A stretch of DNA of 64,000 nt from Octopus vulgaris. Taxonomy: Eukaryota. The notes below the pieces were generated by a model. The model did no database searches. It was not told the origin of the DNA and saw only the letters and a program-made list of their open reading frames with translations. Below, piece after piece: positions 20,438 to 62,812 of this stretch. The number at the start of each line of letters is the position of its first letter. The stretch's first letter is position 1. The translations under genes were made by a program, and so were the position numbers. The stretch covers positions 86,118,001 to 86,182,000 of the forward strand of contig OX597824.1 in the NCBI GenBank assembly GCA_951406725.2. Direction: 5' to 3'.

Positions 20438-23400
20438 GTAAGCATCTTGTGACAGTTTACATTGTGGCATTAAATAATTTTTTTTTTTTTTTTACTACCC
20501 ACAAGGGGCTAAACACAGAGGGGACAAACAAGGTCAGACAAACGGATTAAGTCGATTATGTCAACCCCAGTGCGTAACATGTACTTATTTAATCGACCCC
20601 GAAAGGATGAAAGGCAAAGTTGACCTCGGCAGAATTTGAACTCAGAACGTAATGGCAGACGAAATACCTATTTCATTACTACCCACAAGGGGTTAAACAC
20701 AGAGGGCAAACAAGGACAGACAAATGGATTAAGTCGATTATATCTACCCCAGTGCGTAACTGGTACATATTTAACCGACCCCGAAAGAATGAAAGGCAAA
20801 GTCAACCTCGGCAGAATTTGAACTCAGAACGTAACATCAGATGAAATACCGCTAAGCATTTCATCCGGCGTGCAAACGTTTCTGCCAGCTCGCCGCCTTT
20901 GTGGCATTGAATAATATAAGCTCTGAATATCTGACTAAATAGTCTTAAGTTCAAGTGTGACAACTGTATTGTATGGTCAATGTACATTATTCTACTTGCC
21001 TCAGTCCCTCTGACTGACAAACAGGCTTCACTCTCCACATTTGAATGTTTTTTTTCCTTATATTTCATATGCTGAGTCTAGAGGAAGGTACAGAGCCCAG
21101 GTCCCTTGTAAGCCCTCCAAGATCAATGATATAGATGTCTTGACTGTTCTTTAACATTTGCAAGAGAGAAATGAGCAAGGGTGGGATACAACAGAACTTA
21201 CGTCTTGAAATAGAACTACAAACCAATAAACGGATCATAAGGTCCAGTACTTGTTTCAATCTCTGGTTATTATTACCAAATTAGAAACAATGTACAACTC
21301 TTTACTTCTGAAATGGGAAATTTATATTGTGTATACTGTTTATATAGTGGAGGCGAAATCGCCCAGTGGTTAGGGCAGCGGACTCGCGGTCGAAGGATCA
21401 CGATTTCGATTCCCAGACTGGGTGTTGTGTATGTTTATTGAGCGAAAACACCTAAAACTCCACGAGGCTCCAGCAATGGCAACCCCTGTTGTGCTCTTTC
21501 GCCCCAACTTTCTCTCACTCTTTCTTCTTGTTTCTTGAGTAACGCTGTGATATGGTATTGAATCAACATCTAGAGTCTGACTCCATACTCTACTGTGGTT
21601 TTGTTGTATCTGGAGAGAGTCCTTTTCTCATAGAGTTAGGCAGTAGACTTAATTCTTAGTGCACCAAGCCAACAGAAATAGGTGCGAGATTCTCTGGGGT
21701 GTGTTACCAAAATAGACTTCTATTTTATCCATTTAAAACTATAAAGAATAGGTGCAGGTATGGTTTTTGTAGTTTAGAAGCTTGCTTTCCCAACCATGTG
21801 GTCTTGGGTTCAACCCCAGTGTGTGACACCTTGGGCAAGTGTCTTCTATTATAGCCTCTGACAAACGAAAGCCTTGTCATTGGATTTGGTTCAGGGAAAC
21901 TGAAAGAAGCCAGTTAAATGTATGTGCATATACACCCTTGACTAAACATCACGATGGCTATAAATAAGCATCGCTAATAATACAAGCGATGCTGTTTATT
22001 TCCAGTCTTCCATGGAAACACATCTAACTTTTGGAAATAAGGGTTGGCGACAGAAAGAGCATCCAGCCATAGGAAATCTGATTCTGATTCATGTAAGCGT
22101 AGAAAAGTGGTCGTGAAATGTTGATGTGGACAAAAACGGGGTCTAAACACCAGCACTTAAAAAAACACGAATCGGTGGTATAGTATGGAATGCGGCGAGC
22201 TGGCAGAAACGTTAGCACTCCGGGCGAAATGCTTAGCGGTATTTCATCTGCCGTTACGTTGTGAGTTCAAATTCCGCCGAGGTCAATTTTGCCTTTCATC
22301 CTTTCGGGGTCGATAAATTAAGTACCAGTTACGCACTGGGGTCGATGTAATCGACTTTAAACCTATGTCTGTCCTTGTTTGTCCCCTCTGTGTTTAGCCC
22401 CTTGTTGGTAATAAAGAAATAAGTATAGTATGGAATGTGCCTAGCCCCACCCTTAAAATAACATAACTTGACTACAGCAAACTCGCGCATAAACTGGTCC
22501 CTTTCTTCGGTGTACATGTTCAATGCTACACAATTGTTAGATTTTATAAATATTTAGTTTTTACTTTGCCCTAATATACGTAAATGATAAAAGCAGTTGT
22601 TATATAATCTAAAAACAATTTCAGTTTCACATTTATGGCTGTTCAGTAGGTTTTAACTTTTGCCTACTGTTGATATCTGTTAAATGATAACCTACAATAC
22701 TTTCAGATAAACAAAGAAAAATCTTTTATGCTGTCAGTAAAGGCAATTAAAACATCTGCCTACGTTTCCCACTCCCTCTTCCCTTCGCTTCACGTCCTAC
22801 TCTGTAGTTAATTAGGGATGGATTGTTTCCCTTCTATAATGGAATTGTCTCCCTTCAATTATTATCAGTTTGTGTGTGTAAAGATTGCTTTTGTTTAAAT
22901 ATCTATTTCTTTATTGCCCACAAGGGGCTAAACATAGAGGGGACAAACAAGGACACACAAACGGATTAAGTCGATGAGTACTTTATTTATCGACCCCGAG
23001 AGGATGAAAGGCAGAGTCGACCTCGGCGGAATTTGAACTCAGAACATAAAGACAGACGAAATACTTATTTCTTTATTACTCACAAGGGTCTAAGCATAGA
23101 GGGGACAAACAAGGACAGACATAGGTATTAAGTCGATTACATCGACCCCAGTGCGTAACTGGTACTTAATTTATCGACCTCGAAAGGATGAAAGGCAAAG
23201 TCGACCTTGGTGGAATTCGAACTCAGAACGTAAAGACAGACGAAATACTGCTAAGCATTTCGTCCGGCGTGCTAACGATTCTGCCAGCTCGCCGCCTTTA
23301 ATGTTTAAATATCTTTTGTTTAGATATCATCTACTTTAAAGCAACTGTCAAACAGTCATGTTCTCAGCATGGAAAATGAAATAAATGTTTCCTGCCTTAC

Positions 23401-27843: not shown

Positions 27844-28632
27844 TATAATAATAATGAAATTATTGTATACAGTGCTCAGGTGCGCCATAACTTGTCAAAA
27901 GTGCGTATAAAGCATATGCAGTAATGTACAAATGCCTGGAAAGCGAACAGTGTATGAGTCAGATACATGCTTGCGTGTGTATGGAGGGGAGAAAATCAGG
28001 TGTTGTGTTGGCAAATCTCAGGAAGCATGGAAGTTTTGAAGGATGCAGTGCTCCAACAACTAACAACTGATGTCGGCAGTTTGTTCCATGCTTCAGCAAC
28101 TCTAAGTGTAAAAAAATGTTTCCAAAAGTCATGGGAGCTGTGCTGTTTTCTGACTTTGTAAACATGTCCACGGGTGTATAGACAGGAGGAGTTTGTAAAC
28201 GTGCTCAGAGTTATTGTTTGTAAGATGGTTAATACTTTTATGGGTGTCTGCCAAATCAGCTGCCAGACGTCGGAGTTTCAATGTGTCCATGCCCAGGGAG
28301 GTAAGGCGTTCAGAATATGGCAAATGCCTGATGGAGGGTATTCTCTTGGTTGCACGTTGCTGAACGGTTTCCAGATGATTAATATCCTGAGCAAGATATG
28401 GGTTCCAGACCAGTGATGCAAAGTCTAGGTGAGGCCGAACCATAGCTATATAAAGCCTCAGATAGATAGCCGGAGAGCGGCTCACAAAGGACTTGGTAAG
28501 TGATACCAAGACACCCTCAGCCTTCTTGGCAATTTTAGCAATGTTTTTTGTCCAACGCAAATCGCTGTCGACAATAATGCCCAGGTCACGTTCACAAGAA
28601 GACTTCTTGAGATTAGTGTTGTGAAGGGAGTA
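27844..28632 (-). mobile_element. CR1-clade LINE 3' end, 5'-truncated
   Basis: ERDLGIIVDSDL...LYIAMVRPHLDFASLVWNPY...VQQRATK...YSERL is typical CR1-group ORF2 C-terminus; 3'UTR and (ATT)n tail present; frameshifted. Confidence 0.9.
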
Positions 28633-31600
28633 ACGGTATCTTTTGTAGCATATATCCAAATAACTTGCTTTAAAAAAAATTTTTATTCTGCTCAGTAAAC
28701 ATTATTGACTGTACACCATAGTACGAAATGGTTTGAAATATCTATTTCTTTACTACCCACAAGGGGCTAAATACAGAGGGGACAAACAAGGACAGACAAA
28801 CGGATTAAGTCGATTATATCGACCCCAGTGCGTAACTGGTACTTAATTTATCGACCCCGAAAGGATGAAAGGCAAAGTCGACCTCGGTGGAATTTGAACT
28901 CAGAACGTAACGGTAATGGTTTGAAATACCAGAGTTGAACATGCACGCCATCAACGAAGCAAGCAAACTATACAACATACACAACACAACATGATATGGT
29001 GTATAGGGAGGAAGGAGATAGCAGTTTATGTTTAATTATTTTTCATTTTTAGGGTGCTAGAATATAATCCGAGGGTAATTTTGCCAGTTTTTAACAGATC
29101 GGGTGACTACATGAAAATTATCTCAATGGAGAGATGTCACTATTAAAACAAAACTAAGGGGAGGTAATTCTTTTGATTTCTCAAAAAAAAAAAGCAATTT
29201 TTCATTTATATTTTCAAGCAGTTTTTCTACTTTTATATACATAATTTGTAATAGTAGTAGTAGTAGCAGTAGTAACAGCACTATTGCAAAGACGGTGACA
29301 AGCTGGCATATTCGATGGCAGGTTGGACAAAGGACTTAGTATTTCTTCTAGCTTTTTCTGAGTTCAAATTCTGCTGAGGTCGATTTTGCCTCTCACCCTT
29401 TCAGTATCAAAAAAAAAAAAAAGTTCCATTTGTGCACTGGGTTCGATGTAATTTACAAGCCCTCCCCACTCATCCCAACCCAGCTTAAAATTTCAGGTCT
29501 TGCACCTTGAATAGAAGGGGTTATTTCAGTGGGCAGGCTATCAGACAAATGCTCAGAGGCATTCCTTGTAGCTTTGTCCATTCTGAGTTCAAATTCCAAC
29601 AAGGTTGGCTTCGCCTTTCATCCTTTTGGGGGCTGGATAAGATAAGTGCCAGTTGAGCACTAGGGTTGATATACTCGAGTAAACCCCGTCCAAAGAAATT
29701 CAGGCCTTGTGCCTATAGTAAAAGGTGTGGTTGTGTGGTAAGAAGCTTGCTTCCCAATCAAATGGTCTGGGGTTCATTCTCACCTCAGGATATCTTGGGT
29801 AAGTGCTTTAAGGGCCCATACAAGATTTTGTTGTTAAAATTAGGTTCAATAAATTGGTTACACTTCAATAATATACATAAATATTTTAACAATTTTTCTA
29901 TACAGGTGCAGGAGTGGCTGTGTGGTAAGTAGCTTGCTTACCAACCATATCTGATTCAGGTCATTATGAATATATAGATGCCAGTTCAACCTCAGTGGGC
30001 GATTCTGAAGAATGCTTGCAAGTTGAATCAAGGCAGCCGTCAGGACTTAGCTTCGATGATGTTATTGTTTTATCAGAAGACCAATAAAATAAGTATTAGG
30101 CTTTCAAAGAATAAGTCCTGGGGTCGATTTGCTCGACTAAAGGCGGTGCTCCAGCATGGCCGCAGTAAAATGACTGAAACAAGTAAAAGAGTAATACATA
30201 GTTCTGGCTGTGCATCAAAATGGATTTGCAGAAACAGCATAACAGTGCCCCCTTCATATTCATGGCACCCATAAAAAATTTGAACCTAACTCAGCAAGCT
30301 AACAATGTTCCTTTCACCCATTTACCCCAGCAGACCGTTATCTTCCCATTGCACCTGTTTACATCAAGATACCTTGAACTATCGAAAGTTAAATATCTTT
30401 GTCTTAGATACAACTCAATATCTCCCATCAAGCTTTTATCCTTTAGACTGATAGCCTATCAACACAAGCAGTTTCATCTCTCAATTGGCCTAGTTGTAGA
30501 TGATAAAACTTTGTAAACTTCTCTGTACAAATGAGGTTACATACTTTCTAGACATCGAGGTGCAATGGCCCAGTGGTTAGGGCAGCAGACTCATGGTCGT
30601 AGGATCATCGTTTTGATTCCCAGACTGGGCGTTGTGAATGTTTATTGAGCGAAAACACATAGCTCCACGAGGCTCTGACAGGGGGTACCCTTTCACAACA
30701 TTTTCTCACTCTTTCTTCCTGTTTCTGTTGTACCTGTATTTCAAAGGCTCAGCCTTGTCACACTCTGTGTCACGCTGAATCTCCCTGAGAGCTACGTTAA
30801 GGGTATGTGTGTCTGTGGAATGCTCAGCCACTTTCATGTTAATTTTACGAGCAAGCTGTTTTGTTAATTGGATTAACTGGAATCCTTGTCGTCGTAACCG
30901 ACAGAGAGCCATGACTTTCTAGACACACAATGTCCACAAACCAGAAAAAGAAACCTCTTCACATCATTTGACATGCTAGATATAGCAGCCAAATCTCCAT
31001 TTGATCACACCACACCAGCTTATATCAACATATTACATGGGCAGTTGTTACAGAGTTAGATAGAATACTTCAGAGTATTTGTCTCGGTTCTCTGTACTGG
31101 TAACCACTGGTGAGGTTACCAAGTAACTTGTAAGACAGAAAAAGAGCAGGGAAAAAATGTGCAAAAGCTCCCATGGCTAGGTGAGTGGGGTGGGAGTATT
31201 TGGGAGGGGGTAGGGGATTTTTTATGCCAGGTGCTGTGAGGCTAAAGTATTATAACAGAAGGACAAGTGCAGGTGTCTCACTTTAGAAGAGGTATGTGGC
31301 TGGCTATGGCCACCCACATTTTATGAGTGGGTAGGAGTAGCTGAGAAGGTAATGAGGGTAGTGATGGGGTTACCAGAGCAAACTGAAGGTTTGAGAAGAG
31401 TGCGAGGGGTGGGGATTAAAAGATGTTAGATGTGGGGGGGGGGACAAATACTTAAAGACCACTTAATTATTAGATTGCTTTTGACAGGATTCTTTTACTT
31501 GTTTTAGTCATTTGACTGTGGCCATGCTGGAGCACCACTTGTAGTCAAACAAATCGGCTCCAAGACATTGTTTGTAAGCCTAGTGCTCATTCTATCAGTC

Positions 31601-33490: not shown

Positions 33491-35818
33491 TATGCTTTTT
33501 TACTAAACCCCTACAAATCGAAGAATGTACTGCTTAAAAGAGCTAAGTAATTAATGACCTCAGGGTAATAAGAACTCAATCTGTGATTGTCACACAAAGA
33601 AAAACCACCAACATACCATGCACACACACACACATACATGCATACACAAAAAAAATAAATTGTTTAAATTAAAAGTAATTTCTTTTGTCTCCAACCCATC
33701 CTGTTCTTTATTAATGGTTAGTCCACATTATTCCGTGAGGAGCATAGGGCCAGTTTCCTGGTTCATCTGGCATAGATATTCCTCCTGGGATGGGATGCCA
33801 GTCCATTGCAGGTTTACTCGTCTTTACCTATGTCTTTATTACCCACAAGGGGCTAAACACAGAGAGGACAAACAAGGACAGACAAACGGATTAAGTCAAT
33901 TATATCGACCCCAGTGCGTAACTGGTACTTTATTTATCGAAAGGATGAAAGGGCAAAGTCAACCTCGGCGGAATTTGAACTCAGAACATAACGGCAGACG
34001 AAATACGGCTACGCATTTCGCCTGGTGTGCTAACGTTTCTGCCAGCTCACCACCTCCTCGTTTTTACCATCCATGTGGACTGGAGCAATGTGAAATGAAG
34101 TGTTTTGCTCAAGAACACAACAAATCAACAAATCACCCAGTCCAGGAATTGAAACCACAATCCTAAAATCATCAGTCAAACACCGTAACCTCTCAGCAAT
34201 TCACCTCCATCCCTTTATTAAGGAAAAGATAAATTAGAGTTTGCATCTATAGAATTCTTTCTTTGCATTCATGTTGGATTCAATTTAAAAAGCTCAAAAA
34301 GCATTTTATGAAATGGGCATGGCACATGCATGGTTGGTTTCTTAAGAAGCTTGCTTCCTGACCACATGGTTTCAGGTTCAGTCCCACTTCATTGCAGCTT
34401 GGTGAAGTGTCTTTTACTACAGCCCGGTACCGACTAAATCCCTTGTGATTGGATTTGATAGGAAACTGAAAGAAGCCCTGTTGTATGTGTATGTACGTGT
34501 GTGCCCTTGTCAAGACATCGCATGATGGTTGTACATGATGATGATGATCTATTTCTTTACTACCCACAAGGGGCTAAACACAGAGGGGACAAACAAGGAC
34601 AGACAAACAGATTAAGTCGATCATATCGACCCCAGTGCGTAACTGGTACTTAATTTATCGACCCCGAAAGGATGAAAGGCAAAGTCGACCTCAGCGGAAT
34701 TTGAACTCAGAACGTAGCGGCAGACAAAATACCTATTTCTTTACTACCCACAAGGGGCTAAACACAGAGAGGACAAACAAAGACAGACAAGCGGATTAAG
34801 TCGATTATATCGACCCCAGTGCGTAACTGGTACTTAATTTATCGACCCCGAAAGGATGAAAGGCAAAGTCAATCTTAGCGGAATTTGAACTCAGAATGTA
34901 ACAACAGACGAAATACCGTTAAGCATTTTGCCTAGCGTGCTAATGGTTCTGCCATCTCGTCGCCTTAATGATGTGAGGTTATTTGTTTCCAGTGTTCTGT
35001 GAAAAACATTTCTAGCTTTGGAAAAAAACACTGCCTCACAGGATGTCCCAAAAATAATAAGCAACACCTTTGCTGTTGTTGTTGTTGTTGATCATCATCA
35101 TCATCATCCTCCTGAGTGGCTGTGTGTATGTTTGTGTGTCTGTGTTTGTCCCCCCAACATTGCTTGACAACCGATGCTGGCGTGTTTATGTCCCCGTAAC
35201 TTAGCAGTTCGGCAAAAGAGACCGAAAGAATAAGTACTAGGCTTACAAAGAATAAGTCCTGGGGTCGATTTGCTCGACTAAAGGCGGAGCTCCAGCATGG
35301 CCGCTGTCAAATGACAGAGTACAGAGGAATTCTCTGACAGACCAGTATCCCATCCCGGGAGGAATATATACTCCAGAGAAACCAGCCCTATGCTCCTTAT
35401 GGAGTCATGTGGACTAACCACATTGGTACAAAGCCACAAATTGTAGAGGTACATGACTATGGCTTATTTTGATACCTTCTTAGAGAGCATTGTCGGAATT
35501 CATTAATTCTTCATTTATTATTATAAAACACTGTACCCTTCACACTACAGTAAGTATAGAACATGCATTCACTGTCATCAAACCATCAATACTATACATT
35601 CATTGTTTACAAAATAAACAACTAAATCAATGTTAATCCGCCCTGCCAGGTGTGCATCAAACATGAAAAAATGGTTATGATCCACGTATTTTTAATACAA
35701 AATGAACGAAAATTGATGAAAAATAGACTAATTAGAAGACCCTTTGTAGAAATTGACCAATATTTTTAATTTGATTTTTAACTAATTGTCTTCCAATTGA
35801 AAATATATTGCTGACGTT

Positions 35819-38800
35819 TCATGCATTAATCAGAGAAATGTCTGAATGTTTTAAATGGTTTTTAACGTGTCGTGATCGTGTGCTTGCTTGCACAAAAGTT
35901 CTGCTACAAAATGGACACTCGAATGGTCTTTCTCCTGTATGAATTCGTCTGTGCTCTTTCAGATTTCCTGATGTAGTGAATGTTTTACAGCAGATATCAC
36001 ACTGAAATGGCTTGGTAAAACAGTCGGCTTTCGTCGAATTCTTGGTGGATGAATGTGTTGTTTGTTTGGTGGGACTGGGAGAATGTTTGTTGCGTGCAAA
36101 ATTAGAAGAGTTCGCTATTGTACTAGGTTGGTTCCCGCTGGTGATTACAGAAGCCACACCACCCTCAGTCACAGTTAGGTCATCATTGGACTGCAGACGA
36201 TCTACAGATTGTGATGCATTTTCTAAACCATGGGACTGCAACTGCCTAACAGTGTTACTATCTTTAATACTAGAGGTATCACTAATGTCTAAAGAAACTG
36301 TTCTGAAATATGGTGTTGTAAATAAACTAGAGGATAAATGCGACTTTGGAGATAATTCTTCATCATTAGATATATCTACACTGCCATCAACCTCATCGGA
36401 TGTAATGGTTTTCAGCGATTCCTTGTTCTGAGAACAACTGAAATCTAAATAGTCAGGGTTGTGTTGTAAAGCTGTGGAAAGAAAGCCCTTGTGAGTTTTC
36501 ATATGCTTTGACAAAGTGCTTTTCTGAGCAAATGTCTTAAGACAAATTTGGCAAGAAAAAGGTCTTTCCCCTGTATGAGTTCTCATATGTTCCTTCATGT
36601 TACTGGCACTTGAGTAAGACTTCTGACAGAAAGGGCAAATATGTTGTTTGGATTGCAGGGAAGAAGAAACTCTGAAAGATTCACAAGATGCCTGAATCTT
36701 GGTGGATTTTAAAGGTTTTCTATTCATTGCTTCATCAGATCGGTTCGAAGCAGGAAACCGTTTTCGAGACTTCAAACGTTTACTGAATAATTCCTTTGAA
36801 GGAATTATCCTTACCTCATCAGATCCGACTGATTCACTGTCCAGAGCATCTAATCCTAAGTTCAAACCATACTCATCACTTTCAGGCTTCATGAAATTTC
36901 TCTTTAGATGACCCTTAGACATTTTGACAACTTTACCAGCATTTTCGGAGTTCACCAGAACGTTATCAGTTGAAGACAGATCCTCCCTGTCATCATTTTT
37001 GTCAGAACTTTCATCTTCTGATAAAACAATAACATCATCAAAGCTAAGTCCTGACGGCTGCCTTGATTCAACTTGCAAGCATTCTTCAGAATCGCCCACT
37101 GAGGTTGAACTGGCATCTATATATTCATAATGGCCTGAATCTGATGCCTCCACTTTGGTTTTCACTTTGCAATCATCAGTGGTGCCAGCCTCCATAATGC
37201 TAAGTGTTTGTTGTTCAACTTTGTCTGGAGAGATCCTCTTCTTCAGATGACTTGCTTCAGAGAAAATGTCCTTTTTGACTCTCTCCGTATTCTTTATAAC
37301 TTCTGTAGAAGACGAATCCAGCTGACTTAGATCCCAGTCTTCTTCGGTCAACTGGAAACTGACCAATTCTTCGACGTATTCCTTTTTTATACACTCAGCT
37401 TCAAATTGCAGTGACTGTTTCTGAATTTCATCAGAGAAATCTTCTAAATGATCAAAGCGACCCCTTGGACTTGATGGGTCTCCTGCCCCTTCACTATCTT
37501 CAGGGTTTGCATTAAACGTAACCCCACACCTTCCATTAGATTTATTCGAGTCAGAAACAACACGACGACTTGAGTGATGGGCATTTCTGGAAGACTTTTC
37601 AGGCAAGCAACCAGGATTACGAGATGGATCCATGTCTAAGTATATTTGGTTGAGTGAATCAGTTAAGTTCTGGGAATAAGGTTTGGACAAGTTTGTTCCA
37701 CTGAAAGTAATATTGCACGACAATTTGTGTAAAGCAAACGAAGCTACATCGGAATAGACTCTGTTGCAATTAGGACAAACACAGTTTTCAGCGTCTCTCA
37801 TGTGATTTATGGATTTGGTTAAACCATGATGAGTTGGTCTTAGAATTTTGGTTCTGGGATTCATTTTGCTTCGTACGTAGTTATTGTTACGTATTGGAAC
37901 AGAAATTTCACTACTGGGTACTGAGCTCTCATATGCATTTTTTCGAAAATGCATTAGTTTCATGTGTCTCGAACACGTACTGGAATGGGTGAATACTTTG
38001 GCACAAAAATAACACTGAAAGGGCCGTTCCCCTGTATGAATTCGGTGATGCTCCTTTAAATTACTCACATTCTTGAAAATTTTATGACAATAACCACACT
38101 GCTTCGACCCCTTCAAATCTTGTCTACCAGTTACACTGGCGCAGTTACTACTTGTTGCATTCCTGCTAAAATTTTCCTCCTCTCTCTTACCATTTTTGTG
38201 TTGCCGACTTAACAGTAATTCTTCTGCCTCATCCAATTTCTCTTCAGACTTCAAGTTACTATCACAACAAATGCTATCACCGTCCCCTTCATCGTTATCG
38301 ATTTCCTGGTTTCTTACAGAATCCCTTTTAGAATAAATCTTCGGTAAAACTTTATCTTTCTTTTCTTTTAAGCGTGAATTTAGACCTTGTATTTTCTGTA
38401 AGTTCTCCTCACCAGAGTTATTCCTGCTGTTTTCAAATTGATTCTGATGAGAATCAATAATTAAATCTTTGGTTTGAGCTTGATTAAAATCTGATTCAGA
38501 GTTAGAAGACATATACCCTGATAATTCTGATGGATTATCAACTTTTTCATTTTGAATTATATCATATCCTTTTTGCAAACCGTAACTAAAGTGATTATTG
38601 TCAGGATATAAAGGATCCATACTACTAGACATTAATCCATCACCAACTATTTTGTCTGGGGGTTCTCCTCTATAATTTACATTGTGTTCTTCATAAAATT
38701 CATCAGATTTTTCAGATGATAAAACAATATTATCAAGTGGCATTTTTTGAAATATTTGTTTCTGGAATGGTTTCTTGGTGTGAGTCAGTCTATGAAGACA

Positions 38801-41800
38801 GAGAAATTGATAAGAAAAGAAATTTCTGGAACAATATTCACATTTGTAAAGGTTCTTCCTTGGCAGCGGCTTTGTATTATTATCGTTGGCAGTCATGGGG
38901 AGTTTTGCAGATTGGTTGGTAGCAGAGAAATCCGTGTGCGGTTCAAATAACCTGGTTTTATTGCACCGTTCGTAAGCAAGTTTGGAGTGAAATCGATGGG
39001 TGGTTTTCATGTGTTTGGAACAAGTACTGGACTGGGCAAACCTGCGATGGCAAATCAAACACTTAAAAGGCCTTTCACCTGTGTGCGTACGCACGTGCTC
39101 TTGCAGGTTGTTTCGAGTGCTAAACAGTTTGTTACAGTAGTTACACTTGTGAGTACGTGGATGCAGTCTTCGAGTTTTCAAATACAGATTCCTTTTAGAC
39201 TTTATATCAGATATTTTAAGGTTACTAACATCGTTATAGTTGTTTCCTGAAGAACTTTCTTTGGATTTCAGTAAATTAACAATTGAAGAGGGCAACCCTG
39301 TTTCTTGGTTTTCAGAAATTGTGTTTCCTGGTGAAAATAGCTTCTGGCTCTTATCACATATTTTATCTAAACACTCTTCTACTTGTGGAATTTCATTTGG
39401 TAATTTGGCACAGGAACGTTTCCTTTCAAGAATGTTTGGGTCATTTATCTTTGGCATTATGGGTTTCTGGTTCAAATCTGTATCAACAATGGCAGTCTTA
39501 AAAACATTTAATTTGTCTTTAAAATCCACAGTTGTTCGTCTCACTGCAAATTTCTTCACGTGAATTTGTTTGTGGAAACACAAAGACTTGTAAGATGAAA
39601 ATTCTTTGAAACAAAAGTCGCATTTGTGGCAATTTCGTCGCAGTCTCAGGCGATCATTAAGTTGCAAGCTTCTCGACAGGTGGGCTACAGAGTTACCTGA
39701 GTTGATTACAGACCTGTTTGGATGAAATTTCGACAATTTGGTTTCACGATGAGCACTTTTTTCATGCTTTGAACGTGTGCTGGACTGAGCAAACCTTTGA
39801 TGACAAATTCGACAACTGAACGGTCTCTCACCTGTGTGGGTTCGCACGTGTTCCCGAAGATTGTTTGCTGTGCTGAAGAGTTTGGCACAAAACTGACATT
39901 TATGGGTATATTTACTTCTGGGGGTCTTTAACCGATTTTTATCTGACAATCCAGTCCCTTTATTGAACATGTCATTTGACTGTACTGGCTGCTGATAAAG
40001 TTTCAGGTGATCAGGAATGGATGGTTTTTTCGGATACGCCATGTCAGTAGTTGATGATTCCAAATAAGAATTGTCTTTGGTGAATTTTAGCTTTTGTATA
40101 CTGAAACGTGAACTGGGGTTGGCTATTGATATGATTTCTACATCTTCCCTTGCCTTATTTGACTCAGCCTCTTTTAGTAATGAGAAAAATTCTGCTGAAT
40201 CATCAGTCTCAGGGTTTGTATTAACTGTTTTGTGTGACAACGCATAGTTCAGATATGTATTCAAAGAAGACCTTTCCTCAATTTGCTGATTAGAATATGG
40301 GCTGAAGGTGGGAGACTCATCCATCGAAGGATCTTCAGATTTCTGCGGACTAAACTGAAGCATTTTCAGAGTAGCAGACTGAGCCAAACAAAGAATTTTA
40401 TGCTGTTGAAATAGAAGAGAGTTTGGAAATTCCTGATTGCAAGAATTGCATATTAAAATGGATGAAGAAAAGGAAGTGTGCCGTTTAGAATGGTTTTCAA
40501 GTTCTTTGCTATTTTGGAAAGTTCTGTCACATTCTGAACATTGAAATATTTGTTGAGAATGCAAAGAGTCCTGAAAAGAAGCGTCGGTCGTATGTAGGTA
40601 TGTGTGCTCGTTAAAATCAACAGCATTTGAAAAAGTTTCATAACAGAAAGTACACTTAAATGGTTTAGTGGAGCCATTATGGGTTTCAATAGTAGTATTC
40701 AATACAACAGAGCCCTGTTCTGCCTGATGGTCGATGCTACTAAAGTCAGATGTCAAATCACAAGAAGGCAACAAAATTTCAGTGGTGACTTTCAGATCCT
40801 TGTCTGTTGAATTAAAACCATCCTGACACTGTATAGTCTTGTCTACTGTGTTGCTTACCAGTCTATTGGATAATATCGGAAGCATGGCATTAAAAGCTGT
40901 TGAACTCTTTTTATGGTGAACTTGAATGTGTTTTTTGAGGTTATGTAATTGTAGAAAATATTTTCCACACTCAGAGCATTGGTGTTTTTTCATATGAAGG
41001 TGGGTTCTTAAGTGTCTTGAGTGGGTGCTGGACTGTGCAAACCTGCGATGACAAAATTTACACTCAAATGGTTTCTCGCCTGTGTGAGTACGGACATGTT
41101 CCCTCATATTACTTGCCGATGAAAATGTCCGACTACAGAAGACACACCTAAAGCCCTCATAGCTGTTAACTTTTGGCAAATTTTCTACACTTTGGTTTAA
41201 TTTTGAACGAGACCCTGATTCTACATTGACTGGGAATTCAGATGATAGTCCTGACTTTTTAAAACGAGAAGAGTATCTTTTATCATTGCCACTTTTTGAA
41301 TTTCCAAAACTCTTCAGTGATTTGGCAGAAACTTTAAGCAAGTCCTTATTGGATTCAAAGGTCAAATTTACCTCAGAATCAATATCAACTGAGGCTTCCT
41401 CTTCTTGCATTTGGTCCTCAACAGGTTCATCTTCTCCAACATTTTCTAATTTGATTTTAGTGCAAAGTTCAATGGGAAAGCTATCCAAATTTTTCTTTGA
41501 CTGAAGTTTGCTCAAATCATCTAAATCTTTAATCTCCAGACTCTTACGGTACCAATCGACGCGACCAGGCTCTGTTTCAGTATCATCATCAACATCTGAG
41601 ATTTCAAGATCTTTATTATACTCTGCTTCTTTGTAACTATCATCATTCTGGATGTCCGTGTCTGATGTATCTTGTAATGAACGATCAGCCGAAAGACAAT
41701 CCGCCTCGTCCTTAGACATGCTGCTTGGAGTCTTGACCGAAAAATTGGTAGAGAGAAGTCCCGTAGAATCATCGACGTTGCTGTGAGTCATTACGTGAAC

Positions 41801-42299
41801 CTTTAGGTCAGCAGCATCAGAGAACGTTTTACAACAATAGGTGCAGACAAATTTCTGATCCCGGATGTGTGTATATAAGTGCTTCGCCCGTGTACTGGAC
41901 TGGGCAAAGGTACGATAACAATACTCGCACTTGAACGGCTTCTCACCTGTATGAATTCTGGTGTGTTCTTTCATGTTGCTGCTGGTGGAAAATGTGCGCG
42001 GGCAGTAGTCACACTTGAAAGGGTGGAAACTGCTTTTAAGACCCCGGACTTGTTTATCTATGTTAGGCAAGTTCTTCTTGGTTGTTTTCTTAGACGAGCA
42101 GCTAAAGGGAGCAGTCTTGTAACTAATCAATTGATTGTTTCTGTTAAGGGCCATTATGTCATCTACAGCTTCACAATTCTGGTCCCCGGCTGTCGAAAGG
42201 TTCTCAGAAGATGTCATGGACAGCTGGAAACTACTTGATTCGAAAGGAATTTCAACTTTCACTTGATACATATGCTTCATATTATCATCATCGTCATCG

Positions 42300-42331
<32 letters not shown>

Positions 42332-45300
42332 TTCATCATCCTCATACTGCACAATTGCCCTGTTTGCTCTTGTTGTTGTCGTGTGTGTTCTTTTATCATT
42401 ACACAATGCATCGACGCTATTATCGTCTTCGCAAATTTCTTTCTTTATATTCTCAATGCTGATTGGTAAATTTTCTTGAGAATTTAGATCCACAACAGAA
42501 ACCGGCTGCAAGCTTTTGCTTGAATCTACAACACTGTCAACTAATAAACCAGATTTGTTTAATTCTATTTGATTCTCTTTGGAAGAATTTAGATAATTTA
42601 ATTTTTCACTCATTCCAGAGAACGGACTGGCTTCATTTTCTGTCCATGATGTAAGGGATTCTTGACTGGTAAAAGTTATTTTGCTGTCAGCAGAACTCGT
42701 TGAATCCTGTTGTTTCACCGAAGAATCTTCTTTGTCAAGATCAGCATTCATAACTTTATCAAGCAAGTTGTTGTTCAAAATAGAAACCAATTCCGAAGAA
42801 TTGGACAACTCTTCTGCTTTATCTGAAGAGGTTTGAATTACAGATTTTACGTCTGAGATGCACAGGTCTTTCTTGGAATAATTCTCATCTTGATCAGCAA
42901 GAGAACTTCTTTCTGAACCACTCCAAAAATCATTGCATTGCTTAGTTAACAATCTAAATGTTTCTGGGAGTTTTTTAATAAGATCCTTTGAAACATTTGA
43001 TGTTTGTAAATCTATACTCTTAGATATTTTAGAAATATTTTCACTGTCCACAAAAGTTGCAGAGGGAGTGTCAGGATCCTTTTCGGCATTTCTTGGCAGT
43101 AATTGCTCAGTGCTGTTATCATCCGAAGAACTTGAATTTGATGCAACTACAGAGTTGGTTACCTTATCTGCTGACTGGTTCTTAGAAGATGATGATCTCC
43201 CTATTAACGAAGATATACGTTTGTTTTTCGTTTTCTTCATATAATTTATTTTGTAACATTGAAACATGTGGTATTTTAGAGGTCCAGGGTGGGTGAAAGA
43301 TTTTGAACAAAATGTACAGGTAAGCTGTTCTTTGTGAGAGTGAGTTAGGACATGTTTAGAATGAGTGCTTGACTGAGCAAATTTTCGGTGGCAGATTTCA
43401 CACTCGTAAGGTTTCTCGCCCGTATGCGTACGCATGTGCTCCTTCATGTTACCAGAAGTGGAGAATGTTCGAGGACAGTAGAGACAGCGATGGGGGCGGT
43501 AGTTCTTTAGTTTCTGAATGTATTTTGAAACTCTTTTACGTTGTGAATATCTTTTACTCGTGTTAGATGGCAACAGCACTTGAGTCTCTCTCGACCTATT
43601 ACGGTTGGTCTTCAGCAGTTCTTCAACTCTGCTTTTCATCGATGTCAACCTACTTTCATGAATGCTGGGATCAACAACATCAGTTAAGTTCTCCCCTACA
43701 ATCAGTTCCTGCTGCCGGTCCTGCACAGTTGCCGAATGATTGACCCCTGGTGATAGTTTACGCTTACAATATTTGTTAAAGATGGTTTTTCTCCCTCCTT
43801 TATTCGAGAAAGAGTAACTTTGGTACATTTGGTTTTCCCCTCCAGTTGAAAATCTCGGTCGCAAATCCTTCTTATTCAACCGAACTTTGGCTTCCTTCTC
43901 CAAACTGTTTGCTGCAATATGGGACAAGTCACTAGAATTAGACAAGGGCGAAGTGCTACTTTGATCAATTTCATTCTTTTTCTTTAGCAGATTTCTTAGA
44001 AACTCAGAGCAAATACCTATCCCTTTAGATGTTCCATCACTAGAGGAAACCACAGGGCTAGACTCTAGCTGTTCAGCAATCTCTTTGGCACTATGTTTCT
44101 GTAAATGCTTTTTATAGTTATTAGCTCTTGTGAATGTTTTATCACATAGATTACAGCTGAACATCTTACTCTTTGTATGAGTGAGAACGTGTTTAGAATG
44201 TGTGCTGGACTGAGCGAAACTTTTGTGGCAGATTTTACAGACAAACGGTCTTTCACCCGTATGTGTCCTCATATGTTCACGCATGTTACTAGCAGTCGAA
44301 AACCTCCGTGGACACAACATGCATGCAACTTTTAACGGGTTTCTCCTACTGGCAAACTGCTCCCTATGCTTCCGTTGACTTGTCACAATCCCTCCTCTTG
44401 AGCAACCACTATAATTCTTGATCAACTGGTCAGGAAACGGTGAATGCAAGTAATCGGTGCCACCACTTTCTTCCACTTTCAGGGATTTATTGCTGCTACC
44501 TCCCGGTTCTTGCAGTCCCATAGCAAAGTAACTATCAAAATAATTCAGTTTCTCAGAAGAACTGTCCGACGATTCGTCCTGCATCTTTGTCTCTTTCTTT
44601 GGAAAGTCAGGCTCTATCAGAATGACATCTTCATTAGTGTCATCGTTATCACTGTCGTAAGCGTCTTTCGACTGTCCAACAGGCTCATCGCTATTTTGAG
44701 TAAGATCAATATGCGAAGAATGCTCGGCGTCCCCAAATGTAAGGGCCACAAATGATGAACTGTTGGAATTGTCCAGACTGCTGCTGGAACCAGGATCATT
44801 TAAATTACTTTGCTGATTGTTTGACCTGTAGTCCCTTTCAAGGTACTGCATTCTGGCATTAAGAGACTTCACTGTCCTTTTTGCAGAGGCACCATACGGA
44901 CTATCTGATTCCAAAATCTTCTGACAGCTTCCCTCCTGAATGTCAATCACTTCGTATTGACCAGATGGACTTAACATCAATTTGCTTGGCCTCACAGAAC
45001 TTAGCTTTTCTTCTGTGTTATGGCTTTGTATGTGTTGTAAAAGTGAGAAAGACTTGTTGAATTCACGATGACAAATACGGCATTTAAACACTTTCTCTGT
45101 CAAGTGACACTGGATGTGTTCCTCCATTTCTTCAACAGAAACAAAATTTTCATTACAAAATGTACATTTGTAGGATTTTTCCAAAGAATAACCTGCGACT
45201 GAGCCGGTAGGGTTAGTCCAGACATCAAAAGATTTCGATGGTAAACTATCCTGGCTGTCATCTTCATCTTCATCCTGATCATCAATGTTGATAACCTCAT

Positions 45301-46141
45301 TGCTTCCGTTATGTGATATCGTTACAAAATCTCTTGATTGGGGCTCTTCAAATGTTCTAGAAGGTTCTAGATTTTGAGCTAAGTCATTTGGCAAGTTTCC
45401 CTCAGGAAATTTGTCAAATGACTTCAATTTGGTTTCCGAACCCTGTGGATATATACTCATGTCAGAATTGCTGTAGATTATGTCTCCGTTCCTAATCTGC
45501 TCATTTGCATTCCACATGTTGGATTCAATGAGAGGTGGAGTCTTAGGCATCACTTCACAAGCTAAATTTTTAAAAATTCCTGTAATAACTGGTTTTACAT
45601 AATCTTTATCCGATACCTCTGGTAATTGGGAATAGGACAGAAATGGTCTAATTTGGTCATTGTTAACAACATTAGGTACAATAGCAGCACTCTCAACACT
45701 ATCACAGACAGGATTCGCTCTATGGTCATGGATTACATCAACATCAGAATCTACATCCCCAATCACAGTTGCGTACTGGTCTGGAGAATTTTCATCAGCA
45801 GGTAAACGAGCCGCTGTGTCAAATGATGTGGAAGGAATTGAAATTCTACTCAGTTGCAACTCATCAGCCGATAGATCCGTGTCGAGCTGCGATGGACTCT
45901 TCGAGTTTTTCATTAATGCCTTTTTTCTGTGGATCTGGACATGTTTGGAGTGTGTGCTTGATTGTGCGAATGTTTTTCCACAAAACTCACATTTGTAAGG
46001 CCTTTCCCCCGTGTGAGTCCTCTGATGTTCACGCATGTTGCTAGCAGTCGAGAAAGCCTTGTCACAGAAATTGCACTTGAATCGTTTCACCTTCACCCTC
46101 AAAGAATTCTCTCTGCCCTTCTCCCTATTAACAGCTGACAT
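35819..46141 (-). CDS. Giant single-coding-exon C2H2 zinc-finger protein, 3440 aa, about 32 fingers (three C2HC) in dispersed clusters
   Basis: Uninterrupted 10,323-nt ORF; ten CxxC...H...HTGE(R/K)P(F/Y)xCxxC doublets plus about 12 other fingers, separated by Ser/Asp/Asn-rich linkers; ATG in caaaATG context just after a candidate acceptor (ttttttgacag|, 46154-46155). Confidence 0.95.
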
Positions 46142-46240
46142 TTTGAATTTGTCCTGTCAAAAAATGTCTAAATCATGTAGATATCTAGTTTCTGTATGTA
46201 CATGGCAAAAAAAAAAAGTATAAAAACTATAGGAATCTAC

Positions 46241-46509
46241 CTTATAAGGACATTGTGACAAATATCAAAACAAAATTCTATACACTGCAAAATGACTGCT
46301 AGATTACCAACAATGTAAGCTATAGGATTTTAAATGAAAAAGAAATGGTTAAATATTCCAGCAGACATTCAGAAGAATCTGTAAATACCACTGAATCCCT
46401 CATGTTCATGAGTTTTTTGCGGGGTTTTTTCCCCATACGGTCACTGATTATGAAGTTATCCTTTCCGGTCTGCTGACAAACAACTTTGTTTGTCACAACA
46501 GATGGGTTT
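46241..46509 (-). other. Candidate non-coding 5'UTR exon of the zinc-finger gene
   Basis: Minus-strand acceptor ttattttcttcttcttttcag| at 46510 and donor aag|gtagat at 46240; implies an 87-nt intron to the acceptor at 46154. Confidence 0.5.
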
Positions 46510-46830
46510 CTGAAAAGAAGAAGAAAATAATAGATTAGGATAAATAAAAAGAGGAAAACATCTGCTACACAAACACATAGCTTATCTAAATTGAAGACTG
46601 GTGGAATTGTAAGAAAATCAAAGAAAACGCCAAGTCGGATTTTGTTCTGTCTTGTAATATTTTGACTGAACCTGGAACCATGTGGTTTAGAAGCAAGCTG
46701 CTTACCACACTACCATACCTGTGCCTATGCATATCGTTGTTGTTATTATTAGTATTAGTATTATTATTATCATAATTATTATTAGTAGTAGTATTGTTAT
46801 TATTATCATAATTATTATTTTAATTTTTAA

Positions 46831-50409: not shown

Positions 50410-51058
50410 GGGTGCTTTTACGTGACACTACACAGGCACTTACATGTGACACTGCACGGGCACTTTTACAAGACACCACATGGGTACTTTTATGTGGCAC
50501 CACATGGGATTTTTAATGTGAAACCACATGGGTGCTTTTATGTGACACTGCATGGGTGCTTTTATGTAGTACCACATGGGTGCTTTTATGTGGCACCACA
50601 ATGTTGCTTTCATGTGGTACCACATGGGTGCTTTTATGTGGCACCACAATGTTGCTTTAATGTGGTACCACATGGGTGCTTTTATGTGGCACCACAATGT
50701 TGCTTTCATGTGGTACCACATGGGTGCTTTTATGTGGCACTACAATGGTGCTTTCATGTGGTACCACATGGGTGCTTTTATGTGGCACTACAATGGTGCT
50801 TTTATGTGGTACCACATGGTTGCTTTCATGTGGTACCACATGGGTGCTTTTATGTGGCACTACAATATTGCTTTCATGTAGTACCACATGGGTGCTTTTA
50901 TGTGGCACCACATGGGTGCTTTTATGTGGCACCACAATGTTGCTTTCATGTGGTACCACATGGGTGCTTTTATGTGGCACCACATGGGTGCTTTAATGTA
51001 ACACTGCATGGGCACTTTTACACGGCACCGCATGGGTACTTTTATGTGACAGCACTTT
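50410..51058. repeat. 24-bp minisatellite (about 27 units) with 48-bp higher-order alternation
   Basis: Units gtggtaccacatgggtgcttttat and gtggcaccacaatgttgctttcat alternate in the centre; units are more diverged at both edges. Confidence 0.95.
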
Positions 51059-51374: not shown

Positions 51375-54300
51375 CTTTAGTATTTAAACTGACCATATCT
51401 GGCCCAAATATTCTGCCTGTTTTATGTCCAAATTGGCCAGATCCAGCCTCTCACACCAACCCTACAAAGTCATACTAAAAGTAAAGTCACAGCATTGAAA
51501 TCCCAAAGCTATGAGATAATCCCTGATTAATTCAAAACAACATGGATAGATAAACAATACATTTGACAGTAATTTAAACAGCAGAGGGATAAGGGAGCAG
51601 CCTTCCCTTCAGGTAACATCAGTAATCCAAAGAGGGAAGTCATGCATACAGGGGCAATTGTCAATCCTACACAAAAATCTTTGCCCAGCTTGCAAATACA
51701 GCTATAGACACATTACCAACTCTGATCCTAGGAGGTCATAGAATAGCAGAACTAAGCAGTTCATAAAATCATCATCATTATCATTGTTTAACGTCCATTT
51801 TCCATGCTAGCATGGGTTGGATGATTTGACTGAGGACTGGCGAACCTGATAGCTGCACCAGGCTCCGGTCTGATCTGGCAGAGTTTCTACTGCTGGATGC
51901 CCTTCCTAACATCAACCACTCTGAGAGTGTAGCGGGTGCTTTTTACATGCCACCGGCACAGGTGCCAGGGGAGGCTGGCAACGGCCATGATCGGTTGGTA
52001 CTTTTTACATGCCACCGGCATGGAAGCCAGTCAAGGTGGCACTGGTATCGACCACGTACGGATGGTGCTTTTTACATGCCACCGGCACAGAAGCCAGTCG
52101 AGGAGGTACTGGCATCGACCACGTACGGATGGTGCTTTTTACGTGCCACCAGCATACATTTTTCCATATTTTCCATGCATTTTATCTGCTCTGCATTACG
52201 TCTGAATTATGCAGACATTTTCAACGGATACAAATAAATGAAAACAAAAATAAGCATTAAAAAAAAAGTGAGAATATAGAGAGAACATAGGCATGTGGTG
52301 CTGTGTGGTAAGATGCTGGCAGAAACGTTAGCACACCGGGCGAAATGTGTAGCTGTATTTCGTCTGCCATTACGTTCTGAGTTCAAATTCCGCCGAGGTC
52401 GACTTTGCCTTTCATCCTTTCGGGGTCAATAAATTAAGTACCAGTTACGCACTGGGGTCGATGTAATCGAGTTAATCCCTTTGTCTGTCCTTGTTTGTCC
52501 CCTCTATGTTTAGCCCTTTGTGGGTAGTAAAGAAATAGGTATTTCGTTTGCCGTTACGTTCTGAGTTCAAATTCCGCTGAGGTCGACTTTGCCTTTCATC
52601 CTTTCGAGGTCAATAAATTAAGTACCAGTTCCACACTGGAGTCGATGTAATCGACTTAATCCGTTTGTCTGTCCTTGTTTGTCCCCTCTGTGTTTAGCTC
52701 CTTGTGGGCAATTAAGAAAAAGATGCTCGCTTCCCAATCACGTGTGTGTGTGCGTGTGTTTGTATTGTATGTGTGTTACTGTCTCTTTGGCTTGACTTCA
52801 CGTCATAGTTGTGTCACTGCCATGCAAGGTGTGTGGCGTTACGAAGGGCATCCAGCTGTAGAAACTCCGCCAGATCAAGATTGGAGCCTGGTGCAGCCAT
52901 CTGGTTCGCCAGCCCTCAGTCAAAATCGTCCAACCCATGCTAGTATGGAAAGCAGACGTTAAATGATGATGATGATGATGATGAATTCACCGATAGTTAT
53001 TTTATCAATCTCAAAAGGATGAAAAACAAACTCTACACTGGGCAGGATTTGAACCAAAACATAAATATATCCACCCTTACAAGTTACAACAAAGAAGCCT
53101 TTACATGGTTTCCTGATCTGCTAGAAACAGTAACTAAATCACCCTACCAGCTTGAAAAGTGAGAGACATTGAATAACATTGCAATTCCAGATATGCTTTT
53201 CTCAAGTAATGTCTGAAATGGTCACAGATGGAATGGTCATAGATGGAATGCCTTCTACCTTATGCTTGTCCAGTCAGGGCTGACCACAGGTTAAATGACA
53301 ATCCATCATAAATATGTGCATATTACAGTAGCCTATCAGTTGTAGCCAAGGAGAACATACATCTAACATGGATATGGAGGATGTCCCTGTTGAATTTAAT
53401 GTGGAATGAAATGTTAAACATCAGCCATGATCCACAGCTTATAATCAAAACCAGAAAACCTAGATCCAAGCCTTGTTGCAAGCCAGGACAAAATGATGAG
53501 AAACTCTAATCTGAAAATATGTCCAGGAGTGTTCCTAGCTTTTACCCAGAGTACAAGAGTGACATCTTCAGACCCACATCATCCTCATCATCGTTTAACA
53601 TCCGTTTCCCGTGCTAGCACAGGTTGGACAGTGCGACCAGGGTCTGGGAAGCAAGGAGGCTGCACCAGGCTCCAGTCTGATCTGGCAGTGTTTCTACAGC
53701 TGGATGCCCTTCCTAACACCAACCACTCCGTGAGTGTAGTGGGTGCTTTTTACGTGCCACCAGCACAGGTGTCAGGGGAGGCTGGCAGCATCCACGATCG
53801 GTTGGTGCTTTTTACGTGCCACCGGCACAGGTATCACAACTACAATTTCCATTTGATATTTATTTTGATATTGATGTACTTGACTCAATAGGTCTCCTCA
53901 AGCACAGCAGTTCACGTGCCACTGGCACAGAAGCCAGTCAAGGCGGCGCTGGCATCAGCCACGTTCAGATGGTGCTTCTTACGTACCACCAGCACAGGTA
54001 TGTCAATATAAATTCAACTATGCAAGCTAATGAAATAACATGTTAATGTTACAATGTTTCTACTGCTTAGAGGTACAGATTGTTTTTGCTTGTGGTACAT
54101 GTTTTTAGTTCAGTGGACTGAACCAGTCAAGATTTAAGCAACTTTATTACAGATTCAACAAAGCTTGTACAGAATATGGGCTTCCAACCTTTCAACTCAA
54201 TAGCCAGCATCCTAGCCAATAAGTTCTGCTCTCTCTCTTTCGCTCTACACCTATCTATCTATCTATCTATCTCTCTAATACTTTATGACTGAGATCCAAA

Positions 54301-61707: not shown

Positions 61708-62349
61708 TATTTCGGTGTAATTTGAACTCAAATTATAAAGGAGGGACGAAATACCGCCTAGCATTTTGTCTGGTTTGCTAACGATGCTGCCAGTATGCAG
61801 CCCGAAATAGCGCATATATTATCTTATCAACAAATAAAAATAAAACACAAACGTAGTCTTTCTTAACTGAATTGTTTTACATTGGGGACGTGCACACTGA
61901 GAAGTTAACAAGGCTGGGGCGGTTACAGGTAAATCAGAAACATTTTGCAGGAGGTCACATATACACGTCTCAGCAGGTATAATTATCAGATTACCATAGC
62001 CTGAACTTTGGTACGGCAAGGTATCACCTTCACAATTTAGCACTTAACTTATCCAGAATATTTAGGAGTTAAGAGGGTGTATGAAATATCTTTCATTTTT
62101 TTTTTACTTGTTTCAGTCACTTAAGTGCGACCATGCTGGGGCACTGCTTTGAAAAGTTTAGTCAAACAAAGTCGACGGCTGTATATATATATAAAGAAAA
62201 AAAAAAGGCAGGTAATTATTCTAATAGGTCCGTTTTGCTAAACCACTGGCCTATGGAGACGTAAACAAACCAACACCGGTTGTCAAGAGGTGATGAGGAC
62301 AAGCATCGCATGTGCACACACATACATACACATTCACACGCGTGCATTT

Positions 62350-62376
62350 ATATATGTATATATATATGTATGTATG

Positions 62377-62446
<70 letters not shown>

Positions 62447-62810: not shown

Positions 62811-62812
62811 AT

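Follow-up and report, generated by a model that had tools for sequence, protein, structure and literature searches.

The window analysed here is a 64,000-nucleotide stretch of the Octopus vulgaris genome (assembly GCA_951406725.2, contig OX597824.1, positions 86,118,001 to 86,182,000 of the forward strand). It contains a minus-strand open reading frame (ORF) running from 46141 to 35819, which translates into 3440 amino acids (aa) with zero internal stops. The encoded protein carries 32 C2H2/C2HC zinc fingers in 16 clusters, the largest of which holds three, as found by a pattern scan. Twenty of the 32 fingers are arranged as ten doublets, referred to here as heads, whose fingers are all of the C2H2 type (20/20) and are joined by a canonical TGE(K/R)P linker (10/10). 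The first cysteines of successive heads lie 212-584 aa apart. An earlier note on this DNA had described a 3440-aa ORF with ten such doublets; its coordinates agree with ours within a few bases, and the spacing it gave, roughly 160-530 aa, is consistent with the distances between first cysteines.

The recognition helices of the heads are nearly invariant, as the note had stated: the nine finger A helices that it quoted are all present (TASNMRE twice), and finger B reads QSSTxx(K/R) in 7/10 heads, with the single-site variants HSST, QKST and QAST in the remaining three. Its picture of heads on long linkers holds in so far as the doublets stand well apart. The spacers are not empty, however, and contain 12 further fingers, four of them directly behind heads 2-5 and attached by the non-canonical linkers TKSKM, SHKEQ, IRDQK and LHMKK.

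Contig evidence for the ORF

At least half of the sampled sequence words were present in 19 of the 24 listed sequencing runs (seven studies). Contigs of four runs, which are probably RNA, were compared with the window; no run is recorded as RNA. Contigs of runs X1, X6 and X13 span the ORF in long pieces, interrupted at a masked ATC repeat. None of the 15 contig joints listed (of 308) falls inside the ORF, and the indel table for the four runs holds no frameshifting indel within it. Each of the same three runs has contigs whose match ends at 46511, with 54-86 letters left over, exactly at a pyrimidine tract with AG. The data fit one 10.7-kb coding exon downstream of a spliced upstream exon, although contigs cannot prove one transcript. 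Splicing of the ORF into short products, a possibility raised in the earlier note, finds no counterpart here, as no listed intron splits the ORF in the probable RNA contigs.

An upstream ATG-initiated frame on the minus strand (46153-46436) starts MGKKPRKKLMNMRDSV. Splicing from a GT near 46388 to an AG at 46154-46153 could connect it in frame with the long ORF and supply a basic N-terminus; this joint is seen in no contig.

Fingerprint conservation and age of the heads

Positions -1, 2, 3 and 6 of both helices make up the fingerprint, at which the ten heads are on average 0.78 identical in pairwise comparison; for ten variable positions of the hairpin the figure is 0.17. Ten random adjacent finger pairs give means of 0.13 (maximum 0.31 in 2000 draws) and 0.16, respectively. 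The A-then-B fingerprint occurs in none of 6342 adjacent finger pairs from 325 other zinc-finger proteins, a control set that consists of matches to these queries, many of them redundant, and is not a random sample.

Among 77 homology hits, only two bear heads. P0002, from Argonauta hians, is a colinear protein of 3300 aa with 49% identity over 100% of the query and nine intact heads; P0003, a second orthologue, has 3113 aa and six intact heads. Across the 26 heads of the three proteins, finger A has N at +3 (26/26) and E at +6 (25/26), while finger B has Q at -1 (24/26), S at +2 (25/26), T at +3 (26/26) and K or R at +6 (26/26). Position B+5, not a classic base contact, is S in 24/26 heads, and A+2 varies between S, G and N.

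The copies are old. Of 285 comparisons at four-fold degenerate amino acids shared by two heads, 88 (31%) show the same codon, where codon usage alone would give 29%, and the mean proportion of synonymous differences between heads (pS) is 0.92 compared with a nonsynonymous value (pN) of 0.27, so that synonymous sites are saturated. The masked linkers give no match to themselves at E up to 1. All 10 P0002 heads match best the head at the same position of the window protein, and the six P0003 heads correspond, in order, to heads 1 (tied with 2), 2, 3, 5, 9 and 10. In a tree of 25 heads, which leaves out the degenerate P0002 head 3, the heads group by position where resolved (5/22 inner branches are well supported), and the helix variants QKSTLSK and QASTRSR stay at the same heads in all three orthologues. 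Because synonymous sites are saturated and heads pair by position across species, it is selection, not recent copying, that holds the fingerprint. The claim of the earlier note that selection keeps one fingerprint across ten copies is thus supported by the comparison of sequences.

Identity to P0002 falls from 88% in the heads to 80% in other fingers and 40% in the linkers. Conservation within nine heads is highest in the helices (96% at base-contact positions and 96% at other helix positions) and lower in the hairpins (75%), whereas the third fingers reach 77% at base contacts and 74% in hairpins. The proposal that hairpins, third fingers and linkers have diverged freely therefore describes the copies within one protein and does not extend to the comparison between species. 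Finger B of P0002 head 3 has no cysteines, which may be real or a record error, and P0002 head 6 has R at A+6; P0003 retains apparent single-finger remnants at the places of heads 6 or 7 and 8. Head number is thus labile, and the fingerprint barely changes. Among the differences between runs and window that were listed (40 of 127), 38 fall in the ORF, 21 of them synonymous; two lie in heads, both synonymous, which lends weak support.

Further searches added no head-bearing protein. Generic finger arrays dominated both a head-profile search (best 120 of 7922) and one for shorter P0003 relatives (best 120 of 884), neither of which demonstrates absence. A linker-profile search of 1.84 billion representatives returned P0003 alone and missed P0002 too, so it is no proof of rarity. 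Searches of the PDB and the ESM Atlas gave generic C2H2 structures and generic C2H2 clusters of low recognition value, respectively.

Linkers, predicted DNA site and other features of the window

The linkers are rich in Ser, Asp, Glu, Lys and Asn, with Gln at 4.4% overall. They had been described as long and acidic; in total they are mildly so (411 D/E against 339 K/R), and 6/16 inter-cluster segments, one being the N-terminal 20 aa, are net basic. Uniformly acidic linkers are ruled out by these segments and by a basic patch in front of the heads: over the 20 aa that precede the heads the net charge amounts to +0.2 per residue, while 40-160 aa upstream it is negative, and 0/20000 random draws reached the patch total. 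P0002 and P0003 share this patch. Behind the heads the charge is mixed.

The motif KPVITGIFKNLAC is kept in all three proteins and gives the only clearly significant non-finger match to P0003. Short linker words were scored by the usual consensus definitions for the small ubiquitin-like modifier (SUMO), SUMO-interacting motifs (SIM) and other short motifs. Argonauta retains four of the seven SUMO-consensus sites, with 10-aa windows 0.67 identical against a linker background of 0.38 (p 0.0005). Five of seven SIM-like words are kept there as well, and two have P0003 counterparts at like distances. The counts of SIM-like and SUMO-consensus words lie only marginally above those of shuffles (p 0.04-0.41). 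A pattern search of the window protein finds no CtBP, HP1, NuRD or eh1 words, and Pfam matches zinc-finger families alone (PF00096, E 8e-78; PF13465, E 3e-78), with no effector domain.

Under the recognition code for C2H2 fingers, N at +3, E at +6, Q at -1 and K/R at +6 are classic base readers. Finger A (T/S-1, N3, E6) resembles the helix TSGNLTE, from which helix A of head 10 is one residue apart. TSGNLTE is an engineered module for CAT (PMC7317221); in another context it was not strong enough for activation of a yeast reporter (PMC3919609). Finger B (Q-1, S2, T3, K/R6) shares Q-1, S2 and T3 with QNSTLTE, which sits at CTA in a designed array if its finger order is as we interpret it (PMC6146835), and its K/R6 suggests G or T. 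The resulting site is a prediction only: CA(T/N) for finger A and (G/T)(T/C)A for finger B, which combine in antiparallel orientation to approximately 5'-(G/T)(T/C)ACAT-3'. In the non-coding window the related hexamer ATACAT is modestly enriched (83 against 58 expected), and TA-rich microsatellites near 62300-62900 hold 10-13 TACAT per 200 bp. Both are a lead if position 6 is tolerant.

Elsewhere in the window, a 308-codon frame at 9865-10791 (plus strand) is like a signalling-adaptor exon, Pro/Ser-rich with the Tyr words YDHL, YQEL, YSVV and YCEI, and a 190-codon frame at 28129-28701 (minus strand) resembles the end of a CR1/L2-type LINE reverse transcriptase; neither has a Pfam match. A unit of 180-184 bp forms head-to-tail pairs at 5526-5893, 20492-20850, 34549-34917 and 52355-52719 and has very high contig depth where compared, as expected of an abundant dispersed repeat. 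At 50415-51055, a minisatellite of 24-bp units leaves a 251-codon frame of HGCFYVAP-like repeats. A degenerate CAT/ATC microsatellite at 16087-16479 holds three overlapping low-complexity open frames, and few hexamers of the window are more strongly over-represented than CAT/ATC-type triplet words.

Coordinates of the ORF and its features (window positions; head entries give helix A / helix B)
Feature	Position	Strand	Basis
Coding sequence, 32 zinc fingers, apparently one exon	35819..46141	-	translation, pattern scan, Pfam, contigs of probable RNA runs
Leader, 5' part of the ORF exon, with short upstream ATG-initiated frame	46142..46509	-	X1 and X13 contigs span ORF to 46511
Probable splice acceptor with pyrimidine tract, AG at 46511-46510; no upstream exon found	46510..46545	-	sequence, contig ends
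Head 1, TASNMRE / QSSTHSK	45929..46081	-	pattern scan
Linker motif KPVITGIFKNLAC, aa 183-195	45557..45595	-	masked blastp E 7e-6 against P0003; alignment
SIM-like words	44615-44626 and 45284-45295	-	weak
Finger pair without head fingerprint, linker LTEKV	45020..45172	-	pattern scan
Head 2, TASNMRE / QSSTHSK; third finger RANNYKK 44093-44161	44177..44329	-	pattern scan
Conserved linker block aa 705-724, LxxLL-like word, helical in low-confidence model	43970..44029	-	orthologue comparison, structure model
Head 3, TSGNMKE / QSSTHSK; third finger HPGPLKY 43256-43324; finger B degenerate in Argonauta record	43340..43492	-	pattern scan, orthologue comparison
SUMO-consensus IKKE, aa 1232	42437..42448	-	consensus kept in Argonauta
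Trinucleotide repeat encoding a poly-Asp tract	42284..42345	-	sequence and translation
SUMO-consensus VKVE	42251-42262	-	consensus kept in Argonauta
Head 4, TSSNMKE / QSSTRAK; third finger DAADLKV 41783-41851; no P0003 counterpart found	41867..42019	-	pattern scan, orthologue comparison
SUMO-consensus IKLE	41444-41455	-	consensus kept in Argonauta
Head 5, SASNMRE / QSSTHSR; third finger QLHNLKK 40916-40984	41000..41152	-	pattern scan
Three loosely linked fingers without head fingerprint	40388..40660	-	pattern scan
Head 6, TANNLRE / QSSTRSK; lone finger 42 aa behind, 39560-39628	39749..39904	-	pattern scan
Head 7, TRNNLQE / QSSTCSK; lone finger 38780-38848; pairs with head 6 in tree (95/95)	38996..39151	-	pattern scan, tree
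Head 8, most diverged, NVSNLKE / HSSTCSR; lone finger 37715-37789	37949..38104	-	pattern scan, head comparison
SUMO-consensus IKKE	37379-37390	-	consensus kept in Argonauta
SIM-like word VIVL before acidic run, aa 3037	37022..37033	-	weak
Head 9, SASNMKE / QKSTLSK; QKSTLSK common to all three orthologues	36491..36643	-	pattern scan, orthologue comparison
Head 10, TSGNLKE / QASTRSR; 98% / 85% identical to last head of P0002 / P0003	35855..36007	-	pattern scan, head comparison

Relation to known systems and interpretation

By finger pattern and TGEKP-type linkers (32 fingers, ten links), the window protein belongs to the classical C2H2 (Kruppel-type) class, and from the conservation at -1, 2, 3 and 6 together with the engineered modules we infer sequence-specific DNA binding through these positions. 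Tandem-array C2H2 genes of the KRAB, SCAN, ZAD or BTB type have one long array and usually an N-terminal effector domain. With clusters of at most three fingers and zinc-finger Pfam families alone, the window protein is not a member of that group. Closer likenesses are found among proteins whose finger clusters lie far apart in one chain, as in ZEB1/2 (deltaEF1/SIP1), where two distant clusters are both needed and bind like half-sites of variable spacing and orientation, a tolerance ascribed to the long linker (PMC8304685). ZEB1/2 differ in having two clusters, a homeodomain-like region, CtBP and NuRD motifs and the site CACCT(G); the window protein has 16 clusters, no homeodomain hit in Pfam and no PxDLS-type word. 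SALL/Spalt proteins also have spaced clusters, and a weak DNA-binding cluster of SALL4, whose domains have two fingers, needs multivalency to bind chromatin and satellite foci (bioRxiv 10.1101/2025.10.27.684836). SALL/Spalt proteins carry a glutamine-rich tetramerisation region; in the linkers of the window protein Gln makes up 4.4% overall. SALL4 gains its valency by tetramerising and binds an AT-rich motif mainly via ZFC4, whereas the window protein has copies of another fingerprint within one chain; the N-terminal SALL NuRD word R[RK]KQxxP is absent from P0001-P0003 (P0001 being the window protein).

The ZNF512/ZNF512B proteins resemble it in possessing four finger pairs and a disordered region. 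ZNF512B fingers reportedly read like triplets at non-consecutive sites, a result attributed to Ma et al. 2024. Chromatin aggregation by ZNF512B scales with the number of finger pairs (PMC11602157), and ZNF512/ZNF512B are cited as starting heterochromatin at repeats (PMC12920882, PMC13458389). Their pairs are of an atypical C2HC + C2H2 kind, described as vertebrate-specific and accompanied by a NuRD motif (PMC11602157), unlike the pure C2H2 heads here, and no protein of this type is among our hits. ZNF236 records from scallop and rodent likewise show spaced clusters with helices repeating in pairs and several last fingers with R or C at +4. They differ in their four-finger clusters of three alternating types, each present about twice, in KPS/KSS-type first helices and in the absence of the head fingerprint; when compared with the head profile, their best pair reaches 68.6 bits and the P0003 heads 78.8-95.9. 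The helices thus place the window protein outside ZNF236, with which a distant shared ancestry is conceivable. In the HIVEP/Schnurri (ZAS) proteins the two pairs are held to bind the same kB-like site, and their fingerprint differs from that of the window heads. The accessible part of PMC1361774 does not confirm the shared site. These are very long proteins with two widely spaced finger pairs (PMC10853822), compared with ten here, and none of the 77 homology hits bears the HIVEP name. The window protein therefore falls outside the ZEB, SALL, ZNF512, ZNF236 and HIVEP classes yet would appear to work like them.

Nor is the design unique. When 328 proteins were scored for spaced clusters that repeat a fingerprint, the window protein had 10, P0002 9 and P0003 6; seven were found in 18 members of a second cephalopod family, LOC115208765, six in one partial member and five in seven other proteins. 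The LOC115208765 proteins are 2400-2650 aa long, with seven heads (fingerprint identity 0.73-0.80 against 0.15-0.21 in hairpins), basic patches before heads, and SIM-like and SUMO-consensus words; named members come from Octopus sinensis, O. bimaculoides, O. vulgaris and Argonauta, and records of this type include P0022, P0211-P0213, P0019, P0010 and P0014. In contrast to the window protein, their heads have three or four fingers (V/IxSNLIK, NPSNLTR, ASSNLKE), which predicts another site. Because the third helix, ASSNLKE, resembles finger A, the two families may share an origin.

In Amphiura (P0011, P0050), Lytechinus (P0028), octopods (P0066, P0070) and ZNF407, doublets also stand on long linkers; these look-alikes were rejected as counterparts, their fingerprint identity being only 0.10-0.27. 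Because spaced doublets elsewhere share no fingerprint, the signal lies in the fixed fingerprint and not in the spacing, which is not rare. The brittle-star and sea-urchin proteins follow the opposite design: they hold as many as 26 doublets at intervals, most with a TGEKP-type link, and their helices change from one head to the next. Spaced clusters also occur in Octopus sinensis LOC115225209 (P0064/P0214; RSDNLxK/DSSNLTK three times) and in P0007 (ISRNLxA/QKSALTV about five times). An octopod protein of about 2850-3340 aa (P0066, P0070, P0215-P0217) has about 15 non-canonical C2H2 + C2HC doublets on long linkers, with a recurring SxxW(V/I)(M/I)R helix and without TGEKP links, possibly a protein-binding repeat.

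We favour, with slightly better than even confidence, a reading in which the 3440-aa protein is a single-chain multivalent DNA binder whose weak heads gain avidity on one short motif; avidity is a plausible mechanism by precedent. Individual heads would have weak affinity for the motif; through long linkers of probable flexibility, several of them could occupy separate copies simultaneously. The basic patches would add backbone affinity. Occupancy would then rise steeply with local motif density, so that clustered sites would be favoured or distant ones gathered, and SUMO sites and short linker motifs would recruit partners or regulate in place of a folded effector domain.

Several observations weigh against this reading. 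The third fingers and the variants peculiar to single copies are kept from species to species, so that the heads are perhaps not all equivalent. In 23/26 heads, position +4 of finger B is not the customary Leu (it is H, R or C in most), a residue that 81% of 8638 background fingers have there. Engineered three-finger modules are the source from which the motif is extrapolated, and its hexamers are not enriched in the non-coding window (seen/expected: GTACAT 33/34.7, TTACAT 62/53.7, GCACAT 24/38.4). The flexibility of the linkers, though probable, rests on composition and on a single-sequence model of aa 561-980 that is too poor to use (mean predicted local distance difference test score 40.8). 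Conservation of the SIM-like words is significant against all linker windows (p 0.02) and not against hydrophobic-matched windows (p 0.14), and the orthologues found number two only.

Some of these points would suit heads that share a core and are otherwise specialised, their third fingers and helix variants giving each its own extended site or partner in a multi-input factor. The third fingers adjacent to heads 2-5 carry four different helices, non-head fingers are well kept in Argonauta, QKSTLSK and QASTRSR keep to the same heads in all three orthologues, and A+2 varies. We nevertheless consider this unlikely: the linkers of the third fingers are non-canonical, their base contacts are no better kept than their hairpins, the B variants mostly affect +1 and +4, and P0003 does without four intact heads. 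The ten canonical TGE(K/R)P linkers and the invariant base-reading residues argue against a conserved surface that binds protein or RNA instead of DNA, which would turn the chain into a scaffold that docks one ligand at ten places. Such a scaffold is improbable, although it would accord with the residue at +4 and the near-constant S at B+5 in finger B, and with helix positions outside the base contacts that match Argonauta equally well; SALL4 cluster 2 is in addition reported to bind PLZF (bioRxiv 10.1101/2025.10.27.684836). The unusual +4 is itself not foreign to DNA binding, as EGR1/Zif268, a DNA binder of solved structure, also has Arg there in its last finger.

If the heads read the same motif one or two at a time, the copies would serve faster search or redundancy in a conventional transcription factor that neither bridges nor coats. 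Heads can be lost between lineages, the predicted motif is neither clustered nor enriched in the window, and the two clusters of ZEB bind ordinary promoter half-sites (PMC8304685). Redundancy alone is, however, unlikely to maintain nine to ten heads at 88% identity between octopus and Argonauta over linkers at 40%, and we regard this reading as quite improbable. There remains next to no probability for similarity of the heads through recent internal duplication or gene conversion, or for an ORF created by faulty assembly or annotation. Tandem blocks with like helices do exist in some proteins of amphibians (P0133, P0134), and the exact window protein is absent from the protein collection searched. 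Recent duplication and gene conversion are largely ruled out by the saturated synonymous sites, the position-wise pairing across species and the lack of linker self-matches, and the colinear Argonauta orthologue and the intact frame in the contigs of four runs speak against an artefact.

The repeated-head architecture is real and under strong selection. It is apparently undescribed and takes a known principle to an extreme, and there are signs of a small class. The earlier note had called it a candidate for an undescribed system, which stands in that no described function was found for named relatives and gives way in that smaller precedents (ZEB1/2, SALL, ZNF512B, ZNF236) and a second family exist. 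A literature search for the locus names (including LOC115208765) and for the design found nothing, with most subscription papers and supplements outside its scope. The accessible part of a cephalopod C2H2 survey has no occurrence of linker, spaced, doublet or fingerprint (PMC12513265), and another study covers gene counts and clusters, with 2785 C2H2 genes in Doryteuthis (PMC9068888). The binding targets of the very large cephalopod C2H2 repertoires are called an open question (PMC12513265). If our reading holds, one 50-aa head stands for ten and would offer a tractable entry to it.

The second family, with its other fingerprint, suggests a repeated design. Tentatively, there may be a cephalopod class of single-chain multivalent readers with seven to ten heads and its own motif in each family, acting as a SUMO-regulated density sensor or clamp that gathers many copies of a simple sequence into chromatin compartments, for example the TACA-rich microsatellites in which octopus DNA abounds. 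Because the fingerprint was kept while the linkers became unalignable, the target would be a stable one rather than a partner in a fast race with lineage-specific transposons. The natural series of ten, nine and six heads offers a way to relate chromatin occupancy to valency that is built into one chain and not reached by oligomerising. Should the class exist, it would represent an answer to repeat-rich genomes unlike that of a long finger array with an effector domain.

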